Source: Minisyncoccota bacterium
GTDB taxonomy: Bacteria; Patescibacteriota; Minisyncoccia; UBA6257
Assembly: GCA_035385585.1 (NCBI GenBank)
Contig: DAOOKJ010000003.1
Coordinates: 1-60,333 of the forward strand
Direction: 5' to 3'
Length of the DNA stretch: 60,333 nt
The notes beneath the pieces were generated by a model. It saw only the letters and a program-made list of their open reading frames with translations. It did not search any database and had not been told where the DNA came from. Each line of letters starts with the position of its first letter. The first letter of the stretch is position 1. This document shows positions 4,606 through 26,755 of the stretch, piece after piece. The position numbers and the translations under genes are program-made.

Positions 4606-4660
4606 AAAGAAATTTGTCTGCCTACTTTTGACTTTTGACTTATCTAATATATTTTACTCA

Positions 4661-4687
4661 TTAGCAGTTAAAAGTCAAGAGTGCTAA
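4661..4687 (-). promoter_or_regulatory. CIRCE operator (HrcA binding site)
   Basis: TTAGCAGTT-N9-GAGTGCTAA against the consensus TTAGCACTC-N9-GAGTGCTAA. Located 56 nt upstream of the hrcA start. Confidence 0.75.
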
Positions 4688-4793
4688 CCAAAATTTTTTA
4701 TCCCCTTTTTTTCCACTTTAAAATTTTAAAATTCATTGCTTTAGAAAAACGCCCGTGCTAAAATGAAAATGTTAAATATTTAATCTCAAATTT

Positions 4794-5702: not shown

Positions 5703-5709
5703 AATCGCA

Positions 5710-9995: not shown

Positions 9996-10871
9996 TTACA
10001 ATCTTTCCTTCATCCCATAAAAAAATTGCTGTTTTATCTCTTCTCCTTCCTTTTTGATTTTCTCCAGATCGTCATTTCTTACTATATCTTGAGACTCAAA
10101 ATAGTCCCAAGGAGGAACTAATTCGCTCTTTATTTTATTTTTAAGCTCTTTATCATTTATCTTCAATAAAGCTTCATTTATCATAGAACTGTTTTCCTCT
10201 TTCTTTATAAAAGAATTATAATACTCTAAATACTTTTCAACTAATAGCCTAACAGTTCCCGCTTTCACCGTTAACAAAATTCCTTGGTTTTTTTCTGTTT
10301 GTTGCATCTTTTTCTGCAAAACATCCTGAGCAATCGCAGTTGTAATTTGAATCGGGATAGCTTTTATTAATTCCTCTTTATTCTCATTTAACCTTTTTAC
10401 TACTAGAAAAGCGTCCGTGCCCTCCATCCGATCATCATAAGGAGAAGCCTGTTGGATTTCTACTTTGATATTATCCTCAGCTTTTATTAATCTGTCTTTT
10501 ATTAATTTCTCCTTTATCGCCTTTTGCATTTCCTCGCTGTTAATGTTCTTATGAAGATAACCAATGATTATCTTTTCACAAACAAAAGGAAAATTGATAG
10601 TTCTTTCCTTTTCTTTTTTATCAGCTATATTGGCCTCGCTCTCTCTTACCGCTTTAATGGTTTCTGGATTAGCACAGCCGCTTAATTTTCCCTTCCCTTG
10701 ATAAGTGGGAATATCATCAAAAAAAATTTGGAGGCTTGGCCAGATTTTTTTACAAAGGTCTCCTTCTTCTATTCTTTCATTTTCTTCTTTAGTAATTTCT
10801 TCGTTCTCCATTCTTATTATTTTTTCTTCCTCTCCAATAAAATTTAATTCTGAATAAGATTCTAAAGCCAT
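9996..10871 (-). CDS. Hypothetical protein (ORFan, Lys/Glu-rich)
   Basis: 291-aa uninterrupted ORF with host-like AT-rich composition and no motif recognised. Confidence 0.55.
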   Translation of the reverse strand: MALESYSELNFIGEEEKIIRMENEEITKEENERIEEGDLCKKIWPSLQIFFDDIPTYQGKGKLSGCANPETIKAVRESEANIADKKEKERTINFPFVCEKIIIGYLHKNINSEEMQKAIKEKLIKDRLIKAEDNIKVEIQQASPYDDRMEGTDAFLVVKRLNENKEELIKAIPIQITTAIAQDVLQKKMQQTEKNQGILLTVKAGTVRLLVEKYLEYYNSFIKKEENSSMINEALLKINDKELKNKIKSELVPPWDYFESQDIVRNDDLEKIKKEGEEIKQQFFYGMKERL

Positions 10872-10886
10872 ATTTTAAATAATTTA

Positions 10887-10966
10887 TGGTGGCATGTGCG
10901 GGATTTGGACCCACGTTTCATCCGTGAGAGGGATGCGTCCTAGACCGGGCTAGACGAACATGCCAC
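10887..10966 (-). tRNA. tRNA-Glu (anticodon CUC), CCA encoded
   Basis: Minus-strand GTGGCAT...ATGCCAC acceptor stem, TTCGTCTAG..GGAC D-arm typical of tRNA-Glu, anticodon stem-loop CATCC-CTCTCAC-GGATG, GGGTCCAAATCCC T-arm, terminal CCA. Confidence 0.85.
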
Positions 10967-11137
10967 ATAACTTTCAAGAGCCTTTCTGTTTTTTATTCTT
11001 TTAAGCCTCCTTTCCCACTGTCTTGCTTTTTTTAAAGTAAGAAATTCCTCCTGAGGTATTAAAATCCATAGGGAATAAAGCTTAGTCGAAAATACTTTAC
11101 CCTGGATCAGTAAAAGCTTCTTTTTCCGCAATAACAC
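10940..11137 (-). pseudogene. 5'-truncated GIY-YIG (UPF0213-like) nuclease remnant running into tRNA-Glu
   Basis: GKVFSTKLYSLWILIPQEEFLTLKKARQWERRLKRIKNRKALE resembles the C-terminal two thirds of short GIY-YIG proteins. The GIY/YIG N-terminal motifs are absent, there is only a GTG start, and the 3' end overlaps the tRNA by 27 nt. Confidence 0.4.
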
Positions 11138-11155
11138 CCTAAAAAATTTTTAGGA

Positions 11156-11557
11156 CTAAAAATATTCTTCTAAAAATCTCTTTAACTCCTCATTGGTTCT
11201 CTCATTTGAAGAAATCGTTTTTTCCATCCGTTCTTTTAACCATTGTTCAAACTTATTTTTGTCATCAAATTCTTCTTTATTTATAACCCAATGTTCATCG
11301 TGCATTGTTGAACCTAAAATCTGAATAATTATTTTATTTTTATCATCTTTATATAATCTGTAATCTTGTCCATATATCAAATTTAATATTTCTTCATATG
11401 TCTTCCATTTATCTCCATTTTCAGGTGAGGGGGGCGGTGGTGGTGGTGCTTCGGTTGTAAGCTCTGGCAAGTTTTTTGTTGGATTTTGTTCCATCTCTTT
11501 TGCTTCCTTCTCTTTTTCTTTTTTTTGAGGAGGCATTGACTCGAATTCAATAGGCAT
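11156..11557 (-). CDS. Hypothetical protein with poly-proline tract
   Basis: 133-aa ORF with a PPPPPPSP linker followed by a small globular part. No motif recognised. Confidence 0.55.
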   Translation of the reverse strand: MPIEFESMPPQKKEKEKEAKEMEQNPTKNLPELTTEAPPPPPPSPENGDKWKTYEEILNLIYGQDYRLYKDDKNKIIIQILGSTMHDEHWVINKEEFDDKNKFEQWLKERMEKTISSNERTNEELKRFLEEYF

Positions 11558-11664
11558 AATATCATTTTGAAGTTAAAGTTTAAATTCGACCTTTATAATT
11601 GTATAATTATTATTATTTATTTTCAATTAAAAATTTCTCTACTAAGGTCTTCATTTCTTCAGGA

Positions 11665-11838
11665 CTAATTAGAAATAATTGTTCCATTTGGCCATCTATA
11701 TGATGGATTGTAAGCAATAATCACATCAGCATAATTATACCCTATTTCCATAGATTTTTTGCAGGAACTTTCTATAAATACAGCTTTGCCGTTTAAAATT
11801 GTTTTTATTTTAGAGTTCTTTCTGGCTTTTTCTTTCAC
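11665..11838 (-). pseudogene. Decayed fragment paralogous to the middle of the 400-aa ORF at 15010-16212
   Basis: Translates to ARKNSKIKTILNGKAVFIESSCKKSMEIGYNYADVIIAYNPSYRWPNGTI against ARKNSKIELFADNTIAFIEGTHKRAMEIGYENADIIVAYNPKFDWGNGII in the 400-aa protein, about half identical. It has no proper start and begins 1 nt after the stop of the 672-aa gene. Confidence 0.6.
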
Positions 11839-11839
11839 G

Positions 11840-13858
11840 TTATTTTGTAATTTTAATTTTTTCTCGAAATAAGGGATATTGATTTTTGAAATTTTCTATC
11901 TCCTGCATTTTTTTATAAGCATCATTTTTAGGGATAAAAATATTAATGTCGTCTACTTCTTCCAAATTTATGGCTCCTTTAATTACTGCTACGATATAAG
12001 GTTCTATCTGTGGATTATCATTCAGTGTAGTAATTGGTTCTAATACTAATCCTGGTAATGCTCTTTTAATATTAAGTATAGATTTTATTATAGAAATATG
12101 TTCTAATGAAAATGAAAAGTAATCCTTGTTATGACCTTCAAAATAAAAAAAGATGCGATCTTTAAGATTTATCGGTTTTATTAAGAAGAAAACGTCGCCA
12201 TACCCTCCCCCTGTACCCCCTCTTTTAAACTCGTTGAAATTTACTGTTTGTCGCCCCCCGATAAAAGTTCCATAAACTAATGGAGTGCCACGTTCAAAAC
12301 CAAAGTCCATTTCTTGAGGATGTATGGCATTTCCCTTAAGTTCTAATTCACCCCAATATAGAGGATCCTTTTCCCTCATCTTTATTAGCTCTAGAGTCGG
12401 ATAAATATATCCTGTGTCTAAAATCTTTTCTAAACTCTTAAAATCTCGATTAGTACAAATATAATTCTGTTTGTTAACTAACTCTTGTTGCTGTTTTAGC
12501 AGTTGAAAAACTAATTTCTTATCAAACTTTTTTGTATATCTTTCTTTATTTTTATAAAATATTTTTTGACTCTCTTGATCAGCTTCGATTTGATCTTGTG
12601 CACTAATGGCTTTTTCTCGTACTTTATCTCCCATTGTATTAGAAATTAAATAAAACAAACTATGATATAAACCATTATCAGATACGTTACGTAATAACTG
12701 TTCTTGTCCAATGTAAGGTATTGGTTTGTCTAAAATTTTTGTTATACCTTCATCTAATAAAATCGATATATTCTCTTTTGGGGCACGACTTACTTCTTCC
12801 ATTTTTATTAAGTCGGGTAAGTGTGACACTGCAAAATCTTTTAATTTCACTGATAGATTATGTATTTGTATTATATTAAGATTTTTTTTCTTGTTATCAG
12901 ACGTTATATTCATCATTTGCTCGAGATTAATATCTTGCTCCTTGAAATCATCTAATGCCTTATGAATATGGTAGATAACCCACTCTAAATCTTTTTTCAA
13001 TGTTCCAAAACCATTATCAGTATAGTAATCGATATCTATATCTATTAAATTTCCTTTCTGAATTTGTTCCTCTAAATTTTGTCTTTGATTTTCTCGTTCC
13101 TTTTGTTTGTTTAATAGTAACGAAAAGTACTCTAATTTTCTTTTGTCTCCATTTTGCCCATACTGTTTTTGTAAAATTTGACTCGCACCTTCTAAAGTAT
13201 TAATTAATTTATTCGCTACTTCGGAAATGGTTTCTTCTTTATAAGAAGATACAATATCTTCTAATGCTTTATCTAAAGCAACAGAATCTCTTTTGTCTAT
13301 TATATTCATTAATTCGGTAATCTCTGATTTAATCAATTGCATTTCTTTACTTAATCGTGTTTCTGCAAATAACTTATTTTTTTGTTTAACCTTAATACCG
13401 CCATAGATAGAGGATACAGTAAAAAATTCCGCTAATTGTGTTCTTGTATTTTTGAAAGACTCAATATTTATTCTCTTAATATTAGAATCTATTTTTGAAT
13501 CGTTTTCTATATTTTGTTTATAATATTCTTCGTCCCTCAATGTTACTTTAAAGTATGGGAATACTTCTGCCTCTAAATAATCCATAAGCTCTTTTTTCTC
13601 AAGGGAATCTCCGTACAAACCTTTGTTTATTAACCAATAGGAATTGAACATTTCACTTAGATATTCTTTGGAATAATTTGCATTTGCTCCTCGCTTATCT
13701 GGAGTTTTTTGAACTTTATCTTCTGGTTTATAAGTATCCTCATTTAACTTATTTAAAACATTAGGAGATTGATTTTCTATCTGTTGATCAGGATTATCCA
13801 GCGAACCGCTTCCGCTAAATACCTCTGGTGAATAATTAATTTGATTGAAATTAGGCAT
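11840..13858 (-). CDS. Large hypothetical protein (672 aa from the internal ATG)
   Basis: Long uninterrupted ORF. I prefer the start MPNFNQINYSPE at 13858 because it matches the N-terminus of the 400-aa ORF. The track start at 13909 would overlap the dehydratase remnant. Confidence 0.65.
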   Translation of the reverse strand: MPNFNQINYSPEVFSGSGSLDNPDQQIENQSPNVLNKLNEDTYKPEDKVQKTPDKRGANANYSKEYLSEMFNSYWLINKGLYGDSLEKKELMDYLEAEVFPYFKVTLRDEEYYKQNIENDSKIDSNIKRINIESFKNTRTQLAEFFTVSSIYGGIKVKQKNKLFAETRLSKEMQLIKSEITELMNIIDKRDSVALDKALEDIVSSYKEETISEVANKLINTLEGASQILQKQYGQNGDKRKLEYFSLLLNKQKERENQRQNLEEQIQKGNLIDIDIDYYTDNGFGTLKKDLEWVIYHIHKALDDFKEQDINLEQMMNITSDNKKKNLNIIQIHNLSVKLKDFAVSHLPDLIKMEEVSRAPKENISILLDEGITKILDKPIPYIGQEQLLRNVSDNGLYHSLFYLISNTMGDKVREKAISAQDQIEADQESQKIFYKNKERYTKKFDKKLVFQLLKQQQELVNKQNYICTNRDFKSLEKILDTGYIYPTLELIKMREKDPLYWGELELKGNAIHPQEMDFGFERGTPLVYGTFIGGRQTVNFNEFKRGGTGGGYGDVFFLIKPINLKDRIFFYFEGHNKDYFSFSLEHISIIKSILNIKRALPGLVLEPITTLNDNPQIEPYIVAVIKGAINLEEVDDINIFIPKNDAYKKMQEIENFKNQYPLFREKIKITK

Positions 13859-13862
13859 AATT

Positions 13863-14228
13863 TTATATTTCTGAGCAATTAGTGGCACCCATAATAGCAT
13901 CATCGCCATAATTAATTTTTATTCGTTCCCTATTAGTTATAATATCTCTTCTACCTTTAGCACAGATAGTAATTCCAATTGTTTTAGAAAGATTTTTAAC
14001 AAATTCAACTTTATCTAAAAAATTCTCTGGCATTTGCAAATTGTAATAATCACTCATTGATTTTAATTCACCGCTATTTGGTGTTACTATTACTTTTGCC
14101 TTTTTTAATTTATCAATATATTTTGTTTCTAAAATAATACCTATTGCATTAGCATCTATATAGAAAAACCAGGTTATTCTCTCTTTCGCTGTTCTTATAT
14201 TTATTGACTTTTTCTGCTCTAAATTGAA
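13863..14228 (-). pseudogene. NAD(P)HX dehydratase (YjeF C-terminal/NnrD-like) internal fragment
   Basis: The open frame reads ...FYIDANAIGIIL...KAKVIVTPNSGELKSM...ITICAKGRRDIITN...INYGDDAIMGATNCSEI*. This matches the vIDADAL / LTPHxGE / vlKG..tvI / tGnpgmatgGsGDvL order of the family, but about 80 N-terminal and about 70 C-terminal residues are missing, and the only Met gives 64 aa. Confidence 0.6.
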
Positions 14229-14251
14229 TTACATAAATTCTATTCTAAAAT

Positions 14252-14965
14252 TTAGCTATTTTTATTGTTTGGATTCTTAACATTTTTTTCTTTTTCTCTT
14301 TTATCATCCTCCTTAAAACCGATTTCCTCCCCGGGCTCCTCTGGTTCCAATTCCCCTAAAATTTCCTCTTCTAAAGTTTGGCTACTACCCTCCTTTTTAT
14401 TTACAACATCTATTGTAATTTCATCTAGTGGAACAGCCGCCTTCAAGGGGCCGTGTCTATACCGCACAGATTCTCTTATGAATTCTTTAATATATATATA
14501 ATATTGAGAAAACCGCCAACTTTTATCCTCTCTTGCCTTATAACCACTTTTTCCCAACATTTGGGTTAAGACATGTTCTATTAAGTCTTCCTCATCAAAA
14601 GGATAAAGATATTTATTAATTTCACCTTTTAAAACCCCCATCTGTCCAAAATGAGAAATCATAGCTTGTTTAATTTCTTCTTTAAGCAATTCATAATTTT
14701 CTTCAAACCACTTATCATCTCTTTTTTCTATCCGAGTATGGTAATTAAGATAAAGCCACCCCCTCTTTTTTGCTCTTAAAGCAGTATCCTTTGAAACACC
14801 AAACTTTTTCCTAATCTCTTGAGTAGTTAGTTGAGGGTCAATAAGAATCTTTTTTCTTTCTATTGATTCGCCTCTTTTTTGGTTAGAACCATTTTCTTCA
14901 TTTTCTTCATCTTCTTTTTTTTTATCTTTCATTTGACTCTGATAAATTTTGTCTAAATTTTCCAT
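14252..14965 (-). CDS. Hypothetical protein with N-terminal helix-turn-helix, acidic tail
   Basis: LTTQEIRKKFGVSKDTALRAKKRGW looks like a sigma-region-4/terminase-small-subunit style HTH. The rest is unassigned. Confidence 0.55.
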   Translation of the reverse strand: MENLDKIYQSQMKDKKKEDEENEENGSNQKRGESIERKKILIDPQLTTQEIRKKFGVSKDTALRAKKRGWLYLNYHTRIEKRDDKWFEENYELLKEEIKQAMISHFGQMGVLKGEINKYLYPFDEEDLIEHVLTQMLGKSGYKAREDKSWRFSQYYIYIKEFIRESVRYRHGPLKAAVPLDEITIDVVNKKEGSSQTLEEEILGELEPEEPGEEIGFKEDDKREKEKNVKNPNNKNS

Positions 14966-15009
14966 GAATTTAAATGTTTTATATTTATATTACGCCCTTA
15001 AAAATTAAA

Positions 15010-16212
15010 TTAGCCTTCTTTAAAACGTAATTCTATCTCCTCTCTCAATTCTCTCAACTGCTTCAATCTTTCTTCCTTACTTTTTATCAAATTTTTCAAA
15101 TTATTCATTTTTTCCTCTAAATCTCCTAAAGTACTATCATCACGCAACCCAAAAATTTTTTTAATTTCTTCAACCGCTGTCCCCCTCCTGTAATTACTAT
15201 CTTTTATAGAAAGAGTTATTTCATTCTCTAAACGCCTTAAACTCACTATTTTATCTTCTAGCATTACTTCTTCCATATAATTTTTAATTTGTTCCGGAGT
15301 AAGCAAGGGGTCTTTTCCAATCGGTGAACCAATAATATTCTGCTGACCGCCCCACTTTGGGTCAATTTTTTTTAATCTCTCTAATAATTTTTTAATATCA
15401 AAATCTACATTATTATCTCTTCTTGCAATGGTAAACTTTGGCGTAATAATTCCGTTTCCCCAATCAAACTTAGGATTATAAGCAACAATTATATCGGCAT
15501 TTTCATATCCTATCTCCATTGCTCTCTTATGCGTTCCTTCTATAAAAGCAATTGTATTGTCAGCGAATAATTCTATTTTAGAATTTTTTCTTGCTTCTTC
15601 TAAACTTTCCTTATCTTTTAAATATAATTCTTCAATTTCTTTGTCTTCCACTTCATTTGTCAAAAGTTTTTTAACAAACAAAAGATTCTCTTCTATTGGT
15701 TTCCTTTCTTCAAAAACTTTATAATAAGCGGCTCGCAATTTCTGATTTGCCTCAGTCCAATCTTTATCTTCAATTTTTAATAATTCTTGTCCTTGTTCTT
15801 TAAAAACTTTTGGTCCTAATCTATCTAAAATTCCTATTGCCTTGGCTAAATTTTCATCAAAATTTTTATTTTCTTTTCTTAGCATTAAAACCGCCATTGC
15901 GCCTAAAGAATCCAAATCCTGACGAACAGTTGCCATTTTCCCTTCTGAAACTTTAGATAAATCAAATTCTAAAGCCTGTTCAATTGCTGAAGGAGTTTCG
16001 GGAGTATCATTATCTTTATGATGGTCAAGATTTATTCCTTCAAAACCAGGAGTGGTAATTTCTATCCCTATTTCAATTCCTTCGTAATTAGGTTCTTTCG
16101 GGTTTATAATAGTGACTTCGGATTTAATTTTTTCTAACTCAATTTTATCTTTGTTATCCGGGCCACCACCTCCTTCTTCAGGTGAATAAAAAGTTTGATT
16201 TAAATTAAGCAT
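15010..16212 (-). CDS. Hypothetical protein (400 aa)
   Basis: Uninterrupted ORF. Its N-terminus MLNLNQTFYSPE is shared with the 672-aa ORF. It contains NLDHH and DLDSLGAMAVL strings reminiscent of DHH-family motifs but in non-canonical order, so it is not assigned. Confidence 0.65.
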   Translation of the reverse strand: MLNLNQTFYSPEEGGGGPDNKDKIELEKIKSEVTIINPKEPNYEGIEIGIEITTPGFEGINLDHHKDNDTPETPSAIEQALEFDLSKVSEGKMATVRQDLDSLGAMAVLMLRKENKNFDENLAKAIGILDRLGPKVFKEQGQELLKIEDKDWTEANQKLRAAYYKVFEERKPIEENLLFVKKLLTNEVEDKEIEELYLKDKESLEEARKNSKIELFADNTIAFIEGTHKRAMEIGYENADIIVAYNPKFDWGNGIITPKFTIARRDNNVDFDIKKLLERLKKIDPKWGGQQNIIGSPIGKDPLLTPEQIKNYMEEVMLEDKIVSLRRLENEITLSIKDSNYRRGTAVEEIKKIFGLRDDSTLGDLEEKMNNLKNLIKSKEERLKQLRELREEIELRFKEG

Positions 16213-16284
16213 ATTTTTTATTAATTTATATTTACCTCTACATTATATCACTCATATCTAGAATTATCAAAGAATTATGATAAA

Positions 16285-16470
16285 CCTCTGAAGGGCAGAC
16301 TAATCGGATAAAATATTTAAAAAAGTAGTGAAGGAGAGAGTTTTTTATCCTCCATAGCTTTAAGCGTAGGGGGATTCCTTCGTTCCTGAAAATCAGGGGA
16401 AGGGGCACTACTCTTTTTATATCCTTTTTGTCTGCCCTTCAGAGGTAACGACTGAAATTTAAGTCGCTAC
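16285..16470 (-). promoter_or_regulatory. Structured 5' leader domain upstream of the 400-aa ORF
   Basis: A perfect 16-bp closing helix, cctctgaagggcagac (16285-16300) with gtctgcccttcagagg (16430-16445), encloses 129 nt with nested helices (gtagtg/cactac, cctga-aaa-tcagg, ggata/tatcc). A further hairpin follows at 16445-16470. Confidence 0.45.
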
Positions 16471-16484
16471 TTAATTACTGATGT

Positions 16485-16515
16485 ATTATAGCACATTACT
16501 TCTCTCCTCCTTCAA
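16485..16515 (-). promoter_or_regulatory. Putative extended -10 promoter for the 400-aa ORF
   Basis: Minus strand reads GTAATGTGCTATAAT, the same 15-mer as promoter P1 at 22583-22597. The -35 is weak (TTGAAG at 19-nt spacing). Confidence 0.4.
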
Positions 16516-16600
16516 ACCTAAGATAAAAAATCTTAAACTTGAAGGAAGAAAGGAGGTTTTAACCCAATTATGGAAACCTCCCAAAAACTCCATTTAAACC
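16499..16600 (-). repeat. Hairpin module copy 1 (long hairpin H1 plus GGAGGTTT/AAACCTCC extension)
   Basis: Arms cttctctcctccttcaa and ttgaaggaagaaaggagg, followed by ttttaacccaattatggaaacctcc. This copy lacks the second, shorter hairpin H2 that accompanies H1 in copies 2-5; the promoter above replaces it. Confidence 0.7.
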
Positions 16601-16623
16601 CATTTACTCGTTCGATTTTATAT

Positions 16624-16800
16624 TTATAGAACTACCTGTGTAGCGATGAGAACAACGAAAATCCACAAGAAAAACTTAAGGGTGAACTTTACAAATTCAT
16701 CCTCATCGTCCACTAGCTCATTTATCGTAAGGTGAAGAAAGCCACCAAGATAGGAGAGCACTAAACAAAACAAAATTTTTAAAATGATCTCCTTCACCAT
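16624..16800 (-). CDS. 58-aa two-TM mini-protein (below the ORF-track cutoff)
   Basis: AAGGAGG, then 5 nt, then ATG. Translates to MVKEIILKILFCLVLSYLGGFLHLTINELVDDEDEFVKFTLKFFLWIFVVLIATQVVL. Paralogous to the 50-aa ORF at 17939-18091. Confidence 0.6.
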   Translation of the reverse strand: MVKEIILKILFCLVLSYLGGFLHLTINELVDDEDEFVKFTLKFFLWIFVVLIATQVVL

Positions 16801-16805
16801 CTTTA

Positions 16806-17044
16806 CCTCCTTTTTCTCCTTTTGTTCCCTGCTATTACTGGTCAGGTATCCAGGAGAAACTGGATCTCAGATCCTCTAAGATCCAGTATTAAAAAGACAA
16901 TGATTTTTCTTCTTAATGCTGAATCTTAGAACTCATTCCAAGAAGTTTTTCTCTTCCTTTTCAAGGTGCTAAGAGGATTTCTCCTCCTTCAAATCTAAGA
17001 CTCATTGTCTTAAACTTGAAGAAAGAGAGGAGGTTTTAACCCAA
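16806..17044 (-). repeat. 239-bp direct repeat, copy A (leader of the 58-aa ORF; contains module copy 2)
   Basis: Base-for-base identical to 17669-17907 by manual comparison. Begins at the SD (cctcc) and ends at ttttaacccaa. Confidence 0.9.
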
Positions 17045-17102
17045 CTTTGCTACCAAGCACCTCCTCAAAAAAATTAAACTTGATAGCAAAACAATATAGC
17101 TA

Positions 17103-17663
17103 CTAGCTAATTATTATATCTATAATTCTCCCCTCTGGAGGGGGAGAAAAGAACCCTAATATTCTTCTTTTTACCACTATATTCTTCCCTTCTTTGAGGG
17201 CTCTATAAGCCCTCAATTCATTGTGGCACCATCCACATAATTTTAAAAAGGATTCGAGATCATTCTCTGTTGTCCCTATAAACTTTAGAGACACTATTTC
17301 TCCCTCGAAATTCGCTTTGACTATTTTTTTCAAGTTAACTGAATCTAAAAAACTCTTTAAGTAATCTGTCATACTGGAAGTGTTAACTGCATCTACTCTT
17401 CTTCTAATATCTTCAAACAGGTCTCCTAAATTTTTATAAATATCAATTCCTGTTTGAGATAGGATGAACTCTCTAACTTTTTCATATTCTTCCCATGTGC
17501 CTGTCATTAATCCTTTCACCCAATCACTTTTCAATGTAAAAGTGATTGGGGATACTTGTGGGATACGCAAATAGTATCCTGTTCCTGCGTTCCATCCTTT
17601 ACTGCCGAAGCTTTCATACCCGGCCTCGGCATCTATTAATCCAAATAATTTTATTTGGACCAT
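17103..17663 (-). CDS. Hypothetical protein (186 aa)
   Basis: AAGGAGG, then 5 nt, then ATG. Uninterrupted ORF, G+C-richer than host genes, no motif recognised. Confidence 0.65.
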   Translation of the reverse strand: MVQIKLFGLIDAEAGYESFGSKGWNAGTGYYLRIPQVSPITFTLKSDWVKGLMTGTWEEYEKVREFILSQTGIDIYKNLGDLFEDIRRRVDAVNTSSMTDYLKSFLDSVNLKKIVKANFEGEIVSLKFIGTTENDLESFLKLCGWCHNELRAYRALKEGKNIVVKRRILGFFSPPPEGRIIDIIIS

Positions 17664-17668
17664 CTCTT

Positions 17669-17907
17669 CCTCCTTTTTCTCCTTTTGTTCCCTGCTATTA
17701 CTGGTCAGGTATCCAGGAGAAACTGGATCTCAGATCCTCTAAGATCCAGTATTAAAAAGACAATGATTTTTCTTCTTAATGCTGAATCTTAGAACTCATT
17801 CCAAGAAGTTTTTCTCTTCCTTTTCAAGGTGCTAAGAGGATTTCTCCTCCTTCAAATCTAAGACTCATTGTCTTAAACTTGAAGAAAGAGAGGAGGTTTT
17901 AACCCAA
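17669..17907 (-). repeat. 239-bp direct repeat, copy B (leader of the 186-aa ORF; contains module copy 3)
   Basis: Identical to 16806-17044. Confidence 0.9.
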
Positions 17908-17938
17908 TTATGGAGACCTCCTAAAACTCCATAACCCA

Positions 17939-18091
17939 TTATAAGGCACTCATCAGGAGAAGAATTATAAGACACCAAGAAAATACTTGGAGCCTCGTCT
18001 TTCTCCTTTTATCCTCCACTTCCATAGAGATGAGGAGATGGAGGATCAACCCGTAACCAATAATGAGGCCACAAATAACAACGTATCTCAA
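17939..18091 (-). CDS. 50-aa two-TM mini-protein (TTG start, below the ORF-track cutoff)
   Basis: AAGGAGA, then 7 nt, then TTG. Translates to (M)RYVVICGLIIGYGLILHLLISMEVEDKRRKTRLQVFSWCLIILLLMSAL. It shares a C..G..LHL.I...V.D...F.W pattern with the 58-aa ORF. Confidence 0.5.
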   Translation of the reverse strand: MRYVVICGLIIGYGLILHLLISMEVEDKRRKTRLQVFSWCLIILLLMSAL

Positions 18092-18163
18092 TTTTTATTC
18101 TCCTTTGTCCCTGGCCTTAAAGGTTTAAGGGAGTTATCTCCCACCAGAGGGGTAGCTCAATAC

Positions 18164-18218
18164 ATCTTGCCACCATAAAAATTCTTAAAGATTTTATGAA
18201 TCTTTATGGTGGCAAGAT
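18164..18218 (-). repeat. Conserved hairpin H3, copy a
   Basis: atcttgccaccataaa pairs perfectly with tttatggtggcaagat. Repeated at 19018-19074. Confidence 0.7.
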
Positions 18219-18240
18219 ACAAAATAAGACATAGATAAAT

Positions 18241-18374
18241 TTCTCTTCCTTTTCAAGGTACTAAGAGGATTTCTCCTCCTTCAAACCTAATATCGGAATA
18301 ATAAGCTTGAAGGAAGAGAGGAGGTTTTAATTTTTTAAGCGGAGACCTCCTACTAATTTATAATGCAACTCCGC
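18241..18374 (-). repeat. Hairpin module copy 4 (H2 plus H1 plus gcggag/ctccgc hairpin)
   Basis: ttctcttccttttcaaggtactaagagga, then tttctcctccttcaa...ttgaaggaagagaggagg, then gcggagacctcc...ctccgc. Confidence 0.7.
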
Positions 18375-18387
18375 AAAATTCTACAAG

Positions 18388-18939
18388 TTAGTCTAGTAAG
18401 TCATTTTCCTCCCCTGTCAGAGCAAGAACACCATCTGAACTAATTTTATAAATGTATTCACTTGGTGCCCCGTATAATCGTCCCCCAACAGTCATTTTTA
18501 TCGTACTACCAAATCTACATTTTAATATCCACTGTCCACCACTACCCATTGCCCCTGCTGCTCCTTGAGCAATAACACCACTTAAAATCTCCTTTACTCC
18601 TTCTGATATTGTTATATCATTACTGCCTCGAAATCCAATATGTCCTCTAAGAACAATAATACATTCATTCTCTGTTTTATTCTCGTGAGCAATCAATTTT
18701 GGACGACCAGAATGAGTTTCACCTATCTCTCCATCAAATATTATAACATTTCCTTTTTCATCTAGTTCGTTCATCTCTTCCGGGGTCAAACCACTTACGG
18801 GTAAAACCCCGAGACGTCTTCCTCTTCCCTCTTCTCCTACCAAAATTGCGGGTATTGTGATTTCTTTATTGTGAAATATAAACAATTGCACAATACCTCC
18901 CATAAATACTGTTGAACCTTTAATTGTAAAAATCTTCAT
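18388..18939 (-). CDS. Hypothetical protein (183 aa, Gly-rich AQGAAGAMGSGGQ segment)
   Basis: AAGGAGG, then 5 nt, then ATG. Uninterrupted ORF, no motif recognised. Confidence 0.65.
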   Translation of the reverse strand: MKIFTIKGSTVFMGGIVQLFIFHNKEITIPAILVGEEGRGRRLGVLPVSGLTPEEMNELDEKGNVIIFDGEIGETHSGRPKLIAHENKTENECIIVLRGHIGFRGSNDITISEGVKEILSGVIAQGAAGAMGSGGQWILKCRFGSTIKMTVGGRLYGAPSEYIYKISSDGVLALTGEENDLLD

Positions 18940-19017
18940 TATATCCTCCTTTTACCCACCTGTATCTTTCGATATTCAGGCGTTCTAGTTGGATCCTAGA
19001 ACTTTTGGGTGTGGTAG

Positions 19018-19074
19018 CATCTTGCCACCATAAAAACTCCTAAAGATTTTATGAATCTTTATGGTAGCAAGATG
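19018..19074 (-). repeat. Conserved hairpin H3, copy b
   Basis: catcttgccaccataaa pairs with tttatggtagcaagatg. The single change relative to copy a is a C.A mismatch in plus sense but a G.U wobble in minus-sense RNA. Confidence 0.7.
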
Positions 19075-19093
19075 TAATTAGACAGTTCTGCAC

Positions 19094-19232
19094 TTCTCTT
19101 CCTTTTCAAGGTACTAAGAGGATTTCTCCTCCTTCAAGCTTAATATCCAACATATTAAACTTGAAGGAAGAGAGGAGGTTTTAACCCAACTTATAATTTA
19201 TATGGAGACCTCCCAAAACTCCACCTAAACCC
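19094..19232 (-). repeat. Hairpin module copy 5 (H2 plus H1 plus extension)
   Basis: ttctcttccttttcaaggtactaagagga, then tttctcctccttcaag...cttgaaggaagagaggagg, then ttttaaccc...atggagacctcccaaaactccac. Confidence 0.7.
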
Positions 19233-19442
19233 CTCGCTCTTTTCACAGTAGGTTAGCAAAACCTACCAACCTGGCTTTTGGTCTTTTATGGCCAGGTTAC
19301 TTATCGTCTTTCTCAGCCCTCTATTTTATCAAGGTGAGAAATAGCGATAGTCCCTCTTTGCTTCGGCTTTGGAGATGGTTCTCGCGAACCAGCCGATTCC
19401 CGCGGTCTGACGAGGGTTCCGCGGGAGATTACTTATAAAGTC

Positions 19443-19676
19443 CTACAACTCGACTTTATAAGTAATCTTTGCCTCTTTTCTCTCCAACACCCACCAGGGG
19501 TGGTGGAGAGCAATGAGGTCCTTCGCCTCTTCTTCCTCCCAGAGAATCTCCTCTGAGAGATTCCCTACGGAAGAAAGAGAAGCCATCGAGAAAACTACCC
19601 AACCGTAGTTCCTCGATAGAACCTCAAATTCCTTCTCCCCCATCCTAAGGAGAAGAAATTTTTTCTTTCCTTCCAT
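19443..19676 (-). CDS. Hypothetical protein (77 aa from the internal ATG)
   Basis: The track ORF starts at TTG 19700, but AAGGAGG sits 8 nt upstream of the ATG at 19676 (MEGKKKFLLL...). No motif recognised. Confidence 0.5.
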   Translation of the reverse strand: MEGKKKFLLLRMGEKEFEVLSRNYGWVVFSMASLSSVGNLSEEILWEEEEAKDLIALHHPWWVLERKEAKITYKVEL

Positions 19677-19968
19677 TTTTCTTTCCTCCTTCTGACTCAA
19701 AATTTCCCTGAGGGGCGAGTCACTCCTTGTTGATGGTTCAAACGGCTAAATTTAGCCTCCCACCGCACTAGCATTTTACTAGCCTCAGGTAGTTAGTTTT
19801 TTCTTTTTTGTCTTATTAAAAGCTCAAGACAAAAAAGAAAAATTTAGCTTTCCAGGGCTGCTAACCACAACCCCAACCAAGCTGGCTGCCTCATCAGTTT
19901 CAAGTAGCCAACCTGGAAAACCATTAGAAATGGTTTCGGCTTTGCTTGGTTGAAATAAAAAGATAAAA

Positions 19969-20000
19969 AAAGAGGGCTATACAAATATTTGTAGCCCTCT
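19969..20000 (-). terminator. Intrinsic terminator downstream of the 416-aa ORF
   Basis: Minus sense reads AAGAGGGCUAC-AAAUAUUUGUA-UAGCCCUCUU followed by UUUUUUAUCUUUUU. Confidence 0.6.
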
Positions 20001-20055
20001 TTTTTATTAATTTTTCTTATCTTATTTTCCTTATCTTAAGTTTTTTACTCTTTCT

Positions 20056-20156
20056 AACAAGTAGAGAGAGAATTAAGAGGGCTACTCAGAAATTCTCTCT
20101 CCACTTGTTAAAATCCTACTTTCAAAGTAAGCGATAAGCAAAATTGTAGCCCTCTT
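20056..20156 (-). promoter_or_regulatory. Set of mutually exclusive helices upstream of that terminator (attenuator-like)
   Basis: aacaagtagagagagaatt (20056-74) pairs with aattctctctccacttgtt (20091-109). This pair is interleaved with aagagggctac (20075-85) and gtagccctctt (20146-56). The latter 11-mers are the same as the two terminator arms. Confidence 0.3.
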
Positions 20157-20354
20157 TGCCTGCCTAAATTTTTGCTTCTCAAAAATTTAGGCAGGTAGAT
20201 TTTTCAATTTTCTCCTAATTTGAATCTACTATTTTCTAAATAATAAACTCAAAGGGCAAACTCTTTCTAAATTCGCCATATCTTGGTGAACTTGGATAGA
20301 GAAGGGAAGAGGAAGAAAGCCTCTTCCCTTACAACCCTTTATAACCCACTGCCA

Positions 20355-21605
20355 TTAGTCCCTTTCCTCCGTAGGGGGTCTATAATGTGTACGACCCCCT
20401 ACAGATCTTATTCCGAGTCCTACTCTACCCAGATTCACCCTTACGGTAGGGTGATCTGGGTGTTTAATTTCAATTATTTTTACATCATCGGGGAAAATAG
20501 CTATATAGCGTTGATGCCAACGACTATATAGCCACTGAACAGGAGAAGGAGAAAAAGTACAAGAAGAAGGATTAGGGGGGTCCTCTCCCACATAGCTGGG
20601 AGGGGGGATCTTTTTGACTTCATAATAATACTTCCCCTCCCCTATTCCATAATCATTGTCCACGGGGTAAAAATAGAGATCCCCTTGACGGGTTTCTCCT
20701 CCCCATTCATTTAACTTAGGATCTTCTCTCACTAAACTAAAAGAGAGAGAAGAATCTTCTCCTATTTTGATCTCCCACGCGAATTTTTTTCTTAGTGTGG
20801 TCCAGATGACTTCAACTCCCCAGAAACTCTTCTTATTATCTCCTTCATCATATAAAGGATTAACAACAAGACTTCCTTTTCCAGAAACAGTCCCAGCAAG
20901 GATGTAATAGGCTGATTTCCTCACACTATTATCATTATCATAGTAACAAAAGGGGAACCAACGAGGATCACATGCTTCCCTATAGACACCGACGGTGATT
21001 TTTCCCACCGGGGTGTCTAAAGTAGTTTGAAGACATTGGGAGCTTCTAAAAGCCCTTGCCCTCCAAAATAACGGCTGCATTTCTTGGGGAAAGAGGGAGG
21101 CATAACCCTTTTTATCTAGGGTCTCAATTAATTTTTGAAACCCCGATTCTTCTTCTATACCTCCTCTAGAAACATGTTGGGAATTAAAATACCCTAAGGC
21201 ATTTTTAGCTTCGCGGTAAACACTAATCCCAATTTCTAAATCCAATTCGGATTCTTCAACCACTTCTCTTAGCCCCTCAATGTAACAATAAATTGCTTTA
21301 TTGAGGGCTATTTGTTCCTCAGAATCCGAAACTAAGTAAGACCTTTTTATAATTCCAACCTCCACTAAGTAGGTCGGATTAGGCACGGAGGCCAATGCCT
21401 TACGTAATTCTTCACTCTTTAAAAAAGGAGTTATTATCCTTTTTTCTTCAATAAATTCTATCTTTTCTCCTTCTTGGGGAATATAATTTTCCCCATAACA
21501 CTTTATGTCTATAAACTTACCTTTATCCACACCCAACTCCCTACGAAGCTGGGCAATGCTTTTGCCGACGAAATCGCCGGCAACAAATATAATTATCTTC
21601 TCCAT
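20355..21605 (-). CDS. Hypothetical protein (416 aa from ATG 21605)
   Basis: AAGGAGG, then 5 nt, then ATG; the track GTG start at 21611 abuts the SD. Long uninterrupted ORF, roughly 45-50% G+C by spot counts, no motif recognised. Confidence 0.7.
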   Translation of the reverse strand: MEKIIIFVAGDFVGKSIAQLRRELGVDKGKFIDIKCYGENYIPQEGEKIEFIEEKRIITPFLKSEELRKALASVPNPTYLVEVGIIKRSYLVSDSEEQIALNKAIYCYIEGLREVVEESELDLEIGISVYREAKNALGYFNSQHVSRGGIEEESGFQKLIETLDKKGYASLFPQEMQPLFWRARAFRSSQCLQTTLDTPVGKITVGVYREACDPRWFPFCYYDNDNSVRKSAYYILAGTVSGKGSLVVNPLYDEGDNKKSFWGVEVIWTTLRKKFAWEIKIGEDSSLSFSLVREDPKLNEWGGETRQGDLYFYPVDNDYGIGEGKYYYEVKKIPPPSYVGEDPPNPSSCTFSPSPVQWLYSRWHQRYIAIFPDDVKIIEIKHPDHPTVRVNLGRVGLGIRSVGGRTHYRPPTEERD

Positions 21606-21611
21606 AGCCAC

Positions 21612-22495
21612 CTCCTTGCCCCTACCTGCCTCTTTTATGAGGTCAGGGCTTATGGGGTGCTAAATCCTTTCAGATTCGGCTTTAAAAAGATAAAGAATTA
21701 TCTCCTTAAAGCCGAATCTGAGAATTCATTTCAAAGAATTTCAAGGTATTTCTCTAAATCAAACAATACCTTAGTTTGATTTAGATATTACTAAGATTCT
21801 TGGGGATTTTATATTTTAAAGGTGCGAGAGGGTAAGGGCACGGATTGGATTGTGCCCTTACCATAAGTTGTGTCGAGTAAGCAAGGTCCCGCTTGCTTAC
21901 CCGCCTTGCTTTTTCAATTGTCTGAAAAAGCAAGGCGGACAAGCAAAGAAAAGTGGGTTAGGCTTTTCTTCTTGTCCCTCCTAATCGGATTTTTAATCCT
22001 AATTAGGGGTGATAGGGGTTAAAGAATTAAAAGGAGCAAAACTCAACAATTAATTCATTTAACGAAATTGAAATTAAACCCTCGTCTTGGTTTAATCCCA
22101 ATTATTTTCCCCTATCAATTTAAGACGAGAAAACTAAAAAATATTTATTTTTCAATTCACTCTCTCCTTGAATACTCTCTCCTTAAAGAAAGTGAAAGGT
22201 AAATATTTTTTAGTTTTTATTTCAAGGTGCTATATTTTGCTTATTTTGATAAAACGCTATCTCCCCAAGCTGAGGAGAGAATTAAGGATTAATTTAAATA
22301 ATTTAAATCCCTAATTTTCTCATTACCTTGGAATAAAAAAGCGGCTAAAGTTTATTTTCTAAGAAGAGAAATCGGGCTCTAATATCAAACTTTTAACCGC
22401 TTTTGCTTAATTTCCGGTATTAAGCTCACCGACTCTCTCCTTAAGTTATTTAATTATAGGGTGCTTTTTTTCTTTATTCTGCCTATTTTTTAAGT
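21612..22495 (-). other. ORF-free, hairpin-dense ~0.9-kb leader or candidate large structured RNA
   Basis: No minus-strand ORF of 60 aa or more. At least 12 helices of 9-18 bp, mostly perfect, for example 21671-85/21706-20, 21831-41/21852-62, 21901-14/21925-38, 22130-47/22200-17, 22337-53/22388-405. Lies downstream of two consensus promoters. Confidence 0.4.
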
Positions 22496-22501
22496 ATCTC
22501 A

Positions 22502-22530
22502 ACTATAGCACACTTTTAATAAAATGTCAA
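22502..22530 (-). promoter_or_regulatory. Sigma70-type promoter P2
   Basis: Minus strand reads TTGACA, then 17 nt ending in TGTGC, then TATAGT. Confidence 0.6.
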
Positions 22531-22582
22531 ATAGAAATTCCTCTTTAAGTTAGTTTTAACTTCTCACTTTATTTTGTCTTTA

Positions 22583-22611
22583 ATTATAGCACATTACAGC
22601 AAAAATGTCAA
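22583..22611 (-). promoter_or_regulatory. Sigma70-type promoter P1
   Basis: Minus strand reads TTGACA, then 17 nt ending in TGTGC, then TATAAT. Perfect hexamers with an extended -10. Confidence 0.65.
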
Positions 22612-22646
22612 GAAAAATTAAAAAAGGGGCAACTCCTTCCCCTTTT
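22612..22646 (-). terminator. Intrinsic terminator of the mraZ-ftsI operon
   Basis: Minus sense reads AAAAGGGG-AAGGAGUUG-CCCCUUUU followed by UUAAUUUUU, 33 nt after the ftsI stop. Confidence 0.7.
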
Positions 22647-22678
22647 CCTGTTTTCATTTTATTTTCAAATTCAATTTT

Positions 22679-24451
22679 TTACTCTATCTTCTCATCTGGG
22701 GGAATGTTGTAATAATTAATTAAAAATTGCTCTACTTCTTTAAAGGCTAAAGTCACGGTATGGCTGGCAGCGCTATTTGGGTCTATAGGCTTGTCCATTT
22801 TCACTAATATTAGGAAGCGAGGGTCTGAAGCCGGAAAAAATCCAACAAAAGTATGAATCTGATCATCTGAATATCCTCCTTTTCCAAATAAAGGAATCTG
22901 AGCTGTGCCAGTTTTTCCCCCTAAACTGTAACCTTTTATTTTGGCATTTCCTCCAAAACCATTTTCAATTACGGAAACAAGCATTGTGGTTAATGTCTGG
23001 GCAGTTTCTTTAGAAATTACCTGTTTTTGCTCTGGTTGGTCAATGGAATGATACACGCCATTTGAGTCTTCTATTGCCTCGACAATATATGGATTTACCA
23101 CTTTCCCTTCGTTTAAAAAAGCAGAATAAGCCCTTAATAAACCAATTGGAGTAACCGTAATTCCCTCGCCATAAGAGGCGGTTGCCAAATGGCTGGGGTT
23201 GGCTTTTGGATATTCCAAATTAGATAAATCGCCAGTAATTTCATTTGGCAGGTCAATGCCGGTTTTTTCATCTAAACCGAACTTTTTAAAATATTCTCTT
23301 AAATTTTGCATTCCAACTCTCTGGCCCACAAAAATCGCGCCGGTGTTAATAGAACGCTCTAAAACTTTTGTCATCGTCACATTTTTTCCATAAACTTCAT
23401 TCCGATAATTATTAATTCTATAACCAGAAATTTCAAAATACCCTTTATCATCATAAGTGGTCTCCGGCGTCACTTTTTTCAAGTCTATTCCTGCTGCCAT
23501 TGTTAAAGGTTTAATTACTGAACCTGGTTCATACATTTCTTCAACCGCGTAATTTTTATAAACTGAATAATCCTTGACTTCATTAAACTTATTTAAATTG
23601 AAAGTTGGCCAATTTGCCAAAGCTAAAATTCTGCCGGATTTTGCTTCCATTACAATGATTGAGCCTTTTACTGCCCCTCGGCCTTTGATTAAATTTTCTA
23701 AAGCCTCTTCGGTCTTAAACTGAACATTTTTATCAATAGTAATAATAAGATTTGCTCCTTCAACTGGGGCTTTATTTGAAGAAAAAAGAGAATAAATTAA
23801 TCTACCCAAAGCATCTCTAACGCCGGAATATTCACCAGGCTGACCAGATAAAATATCTTCATAATAAGATTCAAGTCCGTATCTGCCTTTTATTTTCCCA
23901 TCTTCTCCCTGAGAAACAAAGCCAATTGTTTGACTCAATAGACTATCAAATGGCCAGTAGCGAAATCTTTCTTCCTTAAAATAAATTCCCTTTATTGCCA
24001 TTTCTTTTATAATAGTCATTAGTTCTTCATCTTCAATCCTATTTACTAATGGTTCATAAGGATCGCCCTCTTTATTTAATCTATTAAAAATTTCTTCCTT
24101 CTTCAGGGACACATATGGAGCCAAAGCCTCACTTGTTTTCTGAGGGTCTTCTATTTCTTTTGGAACCGCATAAAGAGACCAATATTTTTTATTAATCGCC
24201 ACCGCGATCTTTTCCTTATCTTTGTCCTGGGTATAAATTAAACCCCGCTGGGGTAAAAGGGTGGCTTTGGCAGAATGAGTAACTTCCGCCAAAGCCCGAT
24301 ACTCTTCATGTTTTAAAATTTGGAGGTCAAATAAACGCACAGTTAAAATCGCAAAAAGGACAATAAAACCTAAATAAATAAAAAAAACTCTTCCAGAAGG
24401 ATTGATTTCTTCATTTGGAAGAATAATTTTTCGTTTATAAGACCGACGCAT
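22679..24451 (-). CDS. ftsI: Penicillin-binding protein, class B transpeptidase (FtsI/PBP2-like)
   Basis: N-terminal TM segment, SVIKP (SxxK), SIN (SxN) and KTGTA (KTG) motifs. Position follows ftsL. Confidence 0.9.
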   Translation of the reverse strand: MRRSYKRKIILPNEEINPSGRVFFIYLGFIVLFAILTVRLFDLQILKHEEYRALAEVTHSAKATLLPQRGLIYTQDKDKEKIAVAINKKYWSLYAVPKEIEDPQKTSEALAPYVSLKKEEIFNRLNKEGDPYEPLVNRIEDEELMTIIKEMAIKGIYFKEERFRYWPFDSLLSQTIGFVSQGEDGKIKGRYGLESYYEDILSGQPGEYSGVRDALGRLIYSLFSSNKAPVEGANLIITIDKNVQFKTEEALENLIKGRGAVKGSIIVMEAKSGRILALANWPTFNLNKFNEVKDYSVYKNYAVEEMYEPGSVIKPLTMAAGIDLKKVTPETTYDDKGYFEISGYRINNYRNEVYGKNVTMTKVLERSINTGAIFVGQRVGMQNLREYFKKFGLDEKTGIDLPNEITGDLSNLEYPKANPSHLATASYGEGITVTPIGLLRAYSAFLNEGKVVNPYIVEAIEDSNGVYHSIDQPEQKQVISKETAQTLTTMLVSVIENGFGGNAKIKGYSLGGKTGTAQIPLFGKGGYSDDQIHTFVGFFPASDPRFLILVKMDKPIDPNSAASHTVTLAFKEVEQFLINYYNIPPDEKIE

Positions 24452-26472: not shown

Positions 26473-26755
26473 TCAACTTTTGCTTCTTTTCATTTGCCAA
26501 AAATTCTTTTTTAGTTTCTTCAAAAAAAGACTTGCTGTCAAATTGTTCCGAGGATTTTGGCATAAATTTTATCTATCACATATTATATCACTTTTTAAAA
26601 ATATTATAAACTCACTAATATTTTTAGAACTAAAAAAGGCGGCTAATGATTCCCCGCTTTTTGCCACCTCTCGTATATCAAATTTCAATTGAATCTTTTC
26701 CGCTTAATGCTCCCGCAAACCTCTGAAATTCAAGTAAAGTAAGGTAAGACTTCTG

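Follow-up and report, generated by a model that had tools for sequence, protein, structure and literature searches.

Genomes of the Candidate Phyla Radiation (CPR), or Patescibacteria, are small and dense, and gene gain in them is poorly understood. Here we analyze an 11.7-kb segment, called the island below, that lies between ftsI and a tRNA-Glu(CUC) gene in a Candidatus Paceibacterota (CPR) bacterium; the window is the whole stretch of DNA that was analyzed, 60,333 nucleotides of contig DAOOKJ010000003.1, with a G+C content of ~33%. Both genomic islands and prophages have been described in Patescibacteria before (PMC12455944), so an island as such is not new. Mobile regulatory cassettes named PeSLs have been described in the hyperplastic regions of T4-type phages (PMC2839356, PMC4122927), and type II hammerhead ribozymes that flank genes have been documented in prophages, together with a pseudoknot formed by loop I and the 3′ tail (PMC3088659). 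The locus studied here is a clean case, with an exact junction, in which sister species differ by the gain or loss of 11.7 kb without a recognizable mobility gene, and it is unusual in having a bounded, hyper-structured domain and non-coding conservation beside a very rare gene family. We read the segment as a composite, lineage-specific island at a variable locus, in which the half next to ftsI (part B) is a virus-derived, self-promoted cassette array, and we give this reading a probability of about 0.6.

Extent of the island and its absence from sister genomes

The sister genome L021 matches the window collinearly on both sides of the island at 85-89% nucleotide identity (blastn), with window positions 26487 to 22676 corresponding to L021 7963-11776 on the ftsI side and 10965 to 4793 corresponding to L021 11957-18129 on the tRNA side. 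Where the window carries positions 10966-22675, L021 has 180 bp, and tRNA-Glu follows directly. The distance from ftsI to tRNA-Glu is ~175-180 bp in L021 and L028, which are one species (99.5% identity), and in L027, which is distinct (92.5% identity to L021); L027 and L028 are both metagenome contigs, the former of 298 kb. The tRNA-Glu gene is identical in L021, L027 and L028. The low-coordinate junction is exact, as the island ends 1 nt upstream of the tRNA-Glu 5′ end, and the other junction falls somewhere in 22582-22675. The short spacer of the sister species shows a terminator-then-promoter layout, as does the window, with an alignment weakly above background; because the layout is equal, promoter P1 at the ftsI end of the island (Table 1) may be the ancestral promoter downstream of ftsI. 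The same spacer was rejected as a homolog of the island ends or of the promoter in repeat R1, the similarity being weak or equal to background.

An accessory block had been placed at 9996-22650 in a preliminary description of this DNA, with tRNA-Glu at its edge. An accessory block does exist here, but its limits had to be moved: the 291-amino-acid (aa) open reading frame (ORF) and tRNA-Glu are conserved in the sister genomes, so the accessory segment is 10966-22675, the ~970 bp at the low end are core, and the tRNA lies inside the block as first drawn. The 291-aa ORF, which has 67-70% aa identity to the sister species (vs 93% for FtsI) and no family match, is, judging by these identities, a fast-evolving core gene. 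Core genes do flank the segment as described, with recR, rplU and a 110-aa membrane ORF on the low side and ftsI, an ftsL-like gene and mraW on the high side; every ORF inside is on the minus strand, the synteny check proposed there turned out in favor of that description, as ftsI and tRNA-Glu are adjacent in two related lineages (L021/L028 and L027), and the hairpin and T-run behind ftsI are followed by a perfect consensus promoter. The end of the dcw cluster after ftsI had also been tied to the block, a claim that did not survive the comparison: sister species without the block share this end, so the block is not its cause and the truncated cluster predates it.

About 22 contigs of the species, from ENA, JGI and NCBI, carry the block at ≥99.9% identity with zero indels; among the sources of the species are anaerobic-digester samples such as JGI 3300009664, 3300010347 and 3300025638. 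Identity across ~22 independent assemblies excludes misassembly, and the block is fixed within the species; being fixed without indels, it does not show current turnover within the species. The suggested hotspot of insertion and deletion, as opposed to an ordinary operon, was upheld as to a variable accessory site, but not as to ongoing change, nor as to wreckage at 16.2-22.6 kb. The variability comes from a third arrangement in L046, a more distant relative (DnaB 93% and RecR 68% aa identity), in which the order is tRNA-Glu, an 1108-aa ORF, a homolog of the island's 400-aa ORF (54% identical), a 264-aa ORF, a membrane ORF, rplU and recR; the tRNA-Glu neighborhood is therefore variable in this clade. 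Upon comparison, the 264-aa and 1108-aa ORFs of L046 were unrelated to the 291-aa and 689-aa ORFs of the window. Within positions 1-9900 of L046, we also noted ThiF, ThiS and one STIV_B116-like (viral family) gene just upstream of tRNA-Glu and the 1108-aa ORFan downstream.

Structure, genes and repeats of part B

The island consists of two modules, part A next to the tRNA and part B next to ftsI (Table 1). Right behind the ftsI terminator, part B opens with a pair of consensus promoters (22611 and 22530), followed by a gene-free leader of about a dozen long hairpins. A sliding-window scan of folding z scores delimited a domain from ~16,200 to ~22,500 that is sharply bounded, with z of -3 to -12 over nearly all of its length and ~0 ± 1 in the flanks. 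Besides the leader, which also scores -10.5 on the plus strand, excess structure is found in the 654 nt that separate the 416-aa from the 85-aa ORF (z -11) and even in the 416-aa coding sequence (z -7.6); ftsI, taken as a control, gave -0.3. Part B holds 16 of the 31 perfect hairpins in the window. Outside part B, the scan met just one 300-nt window with strong structure, 24151-24450 at the ftsL/ftsI junction (z ~-5).

Excess structure recurs at loci of homologous genes in other genomes, namely L015, L047 and L048 as well as the L019 cassette array; the phage L012 shows it solely in the ~900 nt upstream of the homolog. The layout of L019 is like that of part B, as it lies downstream of a penicillin-binding protein (PBP) gene and has two tandem consensus promoters, a hairpin-rich leader and small ORFs separated by repeats. 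No significant nucleotide homology was found between part B and L019, so the likeness is architectural only. The L019 array (4400-8500) is G+C-elevated and hyper-structured in a low-G+C bacterium, lies downstream of MreC/PBP2 and an IS1595 transposase, has its ORFs spaced by a repeated motif (AAAATCTCCTCTC...CTTGAG) and contains a gene of the 183-aa family discussed below. An rRNA operon, suspected at 16-22 kb from the raised G+C and sparse ORFs, was not found by Rfam, and alternative genetic codes (TGA, TAG or TAA as sense) opened no long ORFs in part B. Among known RNA families, part B gave a near-threshold hammerhead alone, the other matches being generic long-hairpin "miRNA" families. Part B is not wreckage but an organized, self-promoted, hairpin-saturated module.

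As the preliminary description had it, the intact ORFs belong to no family that can be named: none matched Pfam, NCBIfam, PHROGs or PADLOC, and with no PADLOC match a defence island was discarded. Two of the genes nevertheless have viral relatives. The 416-aa protein has 7 homologs among 5.8e9 proteins, one of which, at 38% identity, comes from a 48.6-kb contig that IMG/VR lists as viral and that also carries RecT, a PDDEXK nuclease and DUF2201. Another homolog, in L015 (1400-3400), makes up by itself an island with 58-66% G+C, against ~30% in its host, between a gatB-like gene and recR, and its coding sequence folds with z of -8 to -11. The family shares the invariant motifs FSLVRE, RQGD, FAWE and HxxH, and H382/H385, D309 and E265/E278/E294 are among its invariant residues. 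The AlphaFold (AF2) model (pLDDT 77) had no fold match in the PDB, and no nuclease or recombinase fold was recognizable by Pfam or by the PDB fold search of the predicted model. Residues 1-55 (21440-21605) are an N-terminal extension that the window protein shares with P0002 alone and that is absent elsewhere in the family; it is modeled as strand-helix-strand, like a small beta-grasp-type add-on.

The 183-aa family is larger, with at least 341 homologs and no Pfam domain, and it is represented on 15 IMG/VR contigs, by two Pseudanabaena phages and on a contig of phage-like character that also carries DNA polymerase A, ThyX and RNR. Its AF2 model is all-beta (pLDDT 89.5) with no PDB match, and the sole viral match of the model, in BFVD, was an uncharacterised SIRV11 protein (E 4e-6). 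The 186-aa ORF had no relatives in the phage and viral-contig collections searched, and none of the other block ORFs co-occurred with the homologs in the phage loci that we fetched. The 85-aa ORF is doubtful because it lies in a stretch with z ~-9.8, has a 17-bp perfect hairpin across it and is not agreed upon by gene callers.

Downstream of the 416-aa gene, alignments indicate that the 3′ non-coding region of the family is better conserved than the gene. Between L015 and L047, the proteins are 58% identical, the coding DNA 71-76% and the 3′ region 83.5% over 273 nt; in the window and L048, whose proteins share 44% identity and whose coding DNA defies alignment, the 3′ region still matches at 73% over 146 nt. 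Two hairpins in this region keep their pairing across loci (Table 1), and the AGAGGGCTA box has 4 matches in the window against 0.4 expected, with 3 at the equivalent position of L048. Just after the terminator-like palindrome sits a candidate type II hammerhead, whose cmscan alignment spans model positions 1-66 and includes the CGAAAC, GUU and CUGAUGA elements. Both stem I and stem III are closed, stem II is open and the catalytic core is intact; loop I (UGGCU) is complementary to the 3′ tail (AGCCA), leaving the predicted pseudoknot intact as well.

The remainder of part B is organized around a ~99-nt repeat, which is present in five copies (R1-R5) confined to 16.4-19.2 kb and found nowhere else in the window; the repeats mentioned in the preliminary description, including a 254-nt duplication, are thus borne out. 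On the minus strand, the repeat folds into a stem of 21-22 bp that runs without a break and includes several G.U pairs (-48 to -51 kcal/mol, z ~-4.3); on the plus strand this stem is broken. The apical pairs vary between copies and yet remain paired, a compensatory pattern. The repeat units precede unrelated ORFs. Behind them come leaders of two types, with two uses of each: one type is contained in the 254-nt duplication, and the other contains the D4 hairpin. The 14-mer TAATGTGCTATAAT occurs twice in the window, in R1 and in promoter P1, bracketing part B.

Table 1. Features of the island and of its borders, by position in the window. MFE, minimum free energy.
Feature	Position	Strand	Basis or remark
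291-aa ORF	9996..10871	-	Core, outside the island; ORF at equivalent position in L021, L027, L028
tRNA-Glu(CUC)	10887..10964	-	ARAGORN and Rfam; core, marks the low-coordinate junction
Lineage-specific insert	10966..22675	-	blastn collinearity with L021, L027, L028; 11.7 kb
Part A	10966..16212	-	29.9% G+C (core 0.33), 84% coding, host-like composition
Fragment paralogous to 400-aa ORF	11665..11838	-	BLASTP, 54% identity to residues 205-256, E 9e-19
NAD(P)HX-dehydratase (Carb_kinase) pseudogene fragment	13863..14228	-	Pfam PF01256, 31.6 bits (cutoff 27)
Part B	16213..22581	-	37.5% G+C, 46% coding, hairpin-saturated domain
Consensus promoter, TTGATA-17-TATAAT with TG	16242..16270	-	Precedes 400-aa ORF, heads part A
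Repeat R1	16472..16570	-	Hairpin, then extended -10 box TAATGTGCTATAAT (TGcTATAAT) at 16485-16498
Repeat R2	16949..17047	-	Within 254-nt duplication copy 16796-17049
186-aa ORF	17103..17663	-	No relatives found
Repeat R3	17812..17910	-	Within 254-nt duplication copy 17659-17912
D4 hairpin	18163..18218; second copy 19018-19073		Contains 12-mer TGCCACCATAAA
Repeat R4	18241..18339	-	~99-nt repeat copy
183-aa ORF	18388..18939	-	Virus-associated family
Repeat R5	19094..19192	-	~99-nt repeat copy
85-aa ORF	19443..19700	-	Doubtful as gene
Candidate type II hammerhead ribozyme	19880..19941	-	RF02276; predicted cleavage 3′ of U19919
AGAGGGCTA boxes, four	19966..20155		Include terminator-like palindrome 19966-20005
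3′ hairpin element 2	20052..20113	-	17 pairs; 34/34 cells paired, window vs L048
3′ hairpin element 1	20261..20301	-	17 pairs; 48/51 cells paired in window, L015, L047; one compensatory change
416-aa ORF	20355..21605	-	Very rare family
Gene-free leader, 889 nt	21612..22500	-	About a dozen long hairpins; MFE -299 kcal/mol, z -13.5
Promoter P2, TTGACA-17-TATAGT	22502..22530	-	11/12 consensus
Promoter P1, TTGACA-17-TATAAT	22583..22611	-	12/12 consensus
Hairpin then T-run (ftsI/dcw terminator)	22646->22612	-	Sequence

Part A and the origin of the island

Part A folds like shuffled sequence (z ~0; -0.3 for a coding-sequence control) and carries ORFs of 133, 689, 237 and 400 aa plus remnants. The family of the 400-aa ORF has 23 members on Parcubacteria/Pacebacteria chromosomes, the 689-aa ORF has 7 relatives among 1.84e9 representatives, and PDB sequence searches with the 689-, 400- and 237-aa ORFs gave nothing. 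Two of the three gene remnants proposed earlier were recovered, namely the fragment paralogous to the 400-aa ORF and the NAD(P)HX-dehydratase piece; the latter covers profile positions 95-175 of 242 (TIGR00196, E 1.2e-9) within a 122-codon open frame without a proper start, so that the full-length Carb_kinase domain is lacking and the piece is a pseudogene fragment. Part A carries at least two pseudogene fragments in all. The third, a GIY-YIG tail at 10940-11137, found no support from hidden Markov models in Pfam or NCBIfam or from the PDB at E up to 10. The best-supported reading from sequence is that part A is older Parcubacteria accessory DNA, rearranged and decaying. At the boundary with part B, just upstream of the part A promoter, 16284-16446 holds a 30-nt inverted repeat (87% complementary, arms 103 nt apart), and the surrounding 300-nt window has a z of -8.4.

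We infer that the change at this locus was an insertion here and not a deletion elsewhere. The island between the ftsI terminator and the tRNA-Glu(CUC) 5′ end would have been built in at least two steps, with part A as older accessory DNA having its own promoter and part B as foreign, virus-related DNA. Transcription from the two consensus sigma-70 promoters would yield a long minus-strand RNA of part B, which would run through the hairpin-dense leader, the 416-aa gene with its structured 3′ region, the terminator-like hairpin, the hammerhead and small cassettes, four or five in number; ahead of each cassette is a ~99-nt repeat predicted to form the 21-22-bp RNA stem. The hammerhead and the long stems would cut or insulate this transcript into single-gene RNAs, as proposed for prophage hammerheads, and the repeated regulatory units could serve as recombination substrates that build the array, as for PeSL cassettes; the 254-nt duplication hints at past exchange.

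Several results weigh against this reading. No integrase, transposase or other recombinase was found by Pfam in the block or in the 60-kb window, no direct repeats were found flanking the whole island, and the island adjoins the tRNA at its 5′ end, where the 3′ end would be usual. R1 alone has a recognizable promoter, and R2-R5 lack an acceptable -10 box, so the PeSL analogy is only partial. Neither the ~99-nt repeat nor the 3′ elements were found in IMG/VR contigs. The hammerhead, with 33.9 bits (local E 2.8e-5), is below the Rfam gathering score of 37, and it is absent from the other loci of the 416-aa family. Finally, the two empty-site lineages form a single clade and L046 has a homolog of the 400-aa gene at the locus, so part A may be ancestral and have been lost in the sister clade.

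Taken to its full extent, this last point would make the whole segment ancestral, with the window as the older state and a deletion in the lineage leading to L021, L027 and L028. We consider such a deletion unlikely. The L046 homolog at the rplU/tRNA-Glu locus, the host-like composition of part A and the missing mobility gene and att repeats all speak for it, but that homolog lies across the tRNA with unrelated neighbors, the composition and structure of part B are unlike the host and its relatives are viral, and the sister spacer is a tidy 180-bp terminator-plus-promoter unit in two lineages that are 92.5% identical. A mixed history, in which part A is old and part B was inserted, is possible.

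It can also be argued that part B consists mainly of structured non-coding RNA (or single-stranded DNA) elements to which the proteins are accessory, the 416-aa protein and its flanks being a self-contained and possibly mobile module. The excess structure (z -3 to -13 over 6.3 kb, coding sequence included), its recurrence at homolog loci in other genomes, a 3′ non-coding region more conserved than the protein, compensatory changes in conserved hairpins with a shared box motif, and the homolog that forms a single-gene, G+C-rich island beside recR in another host are all in keeping with this view. On the other hand, covariation support from 4-5 loci is thin, Rfam matches none of the elements but the hammerhead, the single-gene module has no defined ends, target duplications or empty sites, and the protein has no recognizable nuclease or recombinase fold, leaving this explanation doubtful. 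We would advance just as tentatively the idea that the 416-aa gene and its structured flanks are an undescribed module of protein plus structured nucleic acid that moves between CPR bacteria and phages, with part B and the comparable arrays of L015, L019, L047 and L048, likewise G+C-elevated and saturated with hairpins, as a new class of element and not mere island debris.

Part of the evidence for a virus-derived array would also suit the decayed remnant of an integrative element or temperate phage once directed at tRNA-Glu and by now stripped of its integrase and structural genes, since the island adjoins a tRNA, two gene families have phage members and the hammerhead is of the prophage kind. 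The 12-mer TGCCACCATAAA adds to this. It equals the final 8 nt of tRNA-Glu plus the next 4 nt, has 4 matches in the window against 0.00 expected, and is found in each arm of one D4 hairpin and in a single arm of the second (sites at 10883-10894, 18168-18214 and 19023-19034, with none at the island ends); it is precisely here, at the tRNA-Glu 3′ end, that the sister species and the window diverge (GCCACTAACTAAA against GCCACCATAAA). By its sequence, the 12-mer could be a relic of an att-like site. Against a decayed phage stand the position on the tRNA 5′ side, the lack of a partial tRNA copy at the far end, the lack of integrase, capsid, terminase, tail or replication genes or of any PHROG or Pfam match, and the resemblance of part A to Parcubacteria chromosomal DNA, which make this origin quite improbable. 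Still less credible is an integron-like cassette array or an assembly chimera, as the alternation of ORFs with imperfect palindromic repeats and a faint Pfam match to an integron cassette protein (E 0.039) are offset by the absence of IntI or another recombinase in the window, repeats without RYYYAAC/GTTRRRY boxes, leaders of 100-150 nt between a repeat and the ORF after it, and promoters inside the array, and a chimera by the agreement of the independent assemblies.

Outside the island, the plus strand of the window at 35551-36023 matches class A RNase P RNA with 111.5 bits against a gathering score of 100. The match is 473 nt long compared with a 367-position model, and by sequence it is probably a divergent CPR-type RNA with insertions.

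Comparison with described systems

If the structures of part B are functional RNAs or recombination substrates, they would suggest a new mode of expression, insulation or movement for virus-derived cassettes in CPR bacteria. If they are not functional, it still provides a variable-site marker for strain tracking in anaerobic-digester communities.

With the islands of Patescibacteria and Paceibacteria, this locus shares a lineage-specific, multi-kb segment in a streamlined CPR genome, a position beside a tRNA, a richness in ORFans and a partly atypical composition. It differs from them in having no integrase, att repeats or recognizable phage genes, in lying on the tRNA 5′ side and in being, over half its length, gene-poor and hairpin-saturated. 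With PeSLs, the array shares conserved intergenic stem-loop units of ~100 bp that stand between ORFans and are duplicated before unrelated ORFs, along with a promoter after the R1 stem; unlike PeSLs, it is chromosomal, R2-R5 have no sigma-70 promoter, and its stems are 21-22 bp long with G.U pairs instead of short and G/C. The candidate ribozyme resembles type II hammerheads (RF02276; PMC3088659) in its core, GUH triplet, open stem II, pseudoknot and intergenic position in a virus-related segment, and it departs from known members in being sub-threshold, with stem I mismatches, a single copy and no conservation at homologous loci.

The 416-aa gene, with its strong promoters and terminator-like hairpin, is comparable to phage morons, which are self-contained insertions of promoter, gene and terminator, and its family is likewise represented in a phage and, as a single-gene insertion of distinct G+C, in another host; it differs from morons in its very long structured 5′ and 3′ regions, where non-coding sequence is conserved beyond the coding sequence. 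By analogy, it may also be set beside TnpB/IscB with omega RNA and IS110 with bridge RNA, in which a gene for ~350-420 aa likewise adjoins a conserved structured non-coding region whose conservation exceeds that of the protein, but the 416-aa protein has no RuvC, HNH or DEDD domain by Pfam and no PDB fold match, and transposon ends were not found. Lastly, clusters of repetitive extragenic palindromic (REP) sequences and bacterial interspersed mosaic elements (BIMEs) share with part B intergenic hairpins that could stabilize or punctuate mRNAs. REPs are short and dispersed genome-wide, whereas the hairpins of part B are mostly unique, long and confined to one 6.3-kb domain.

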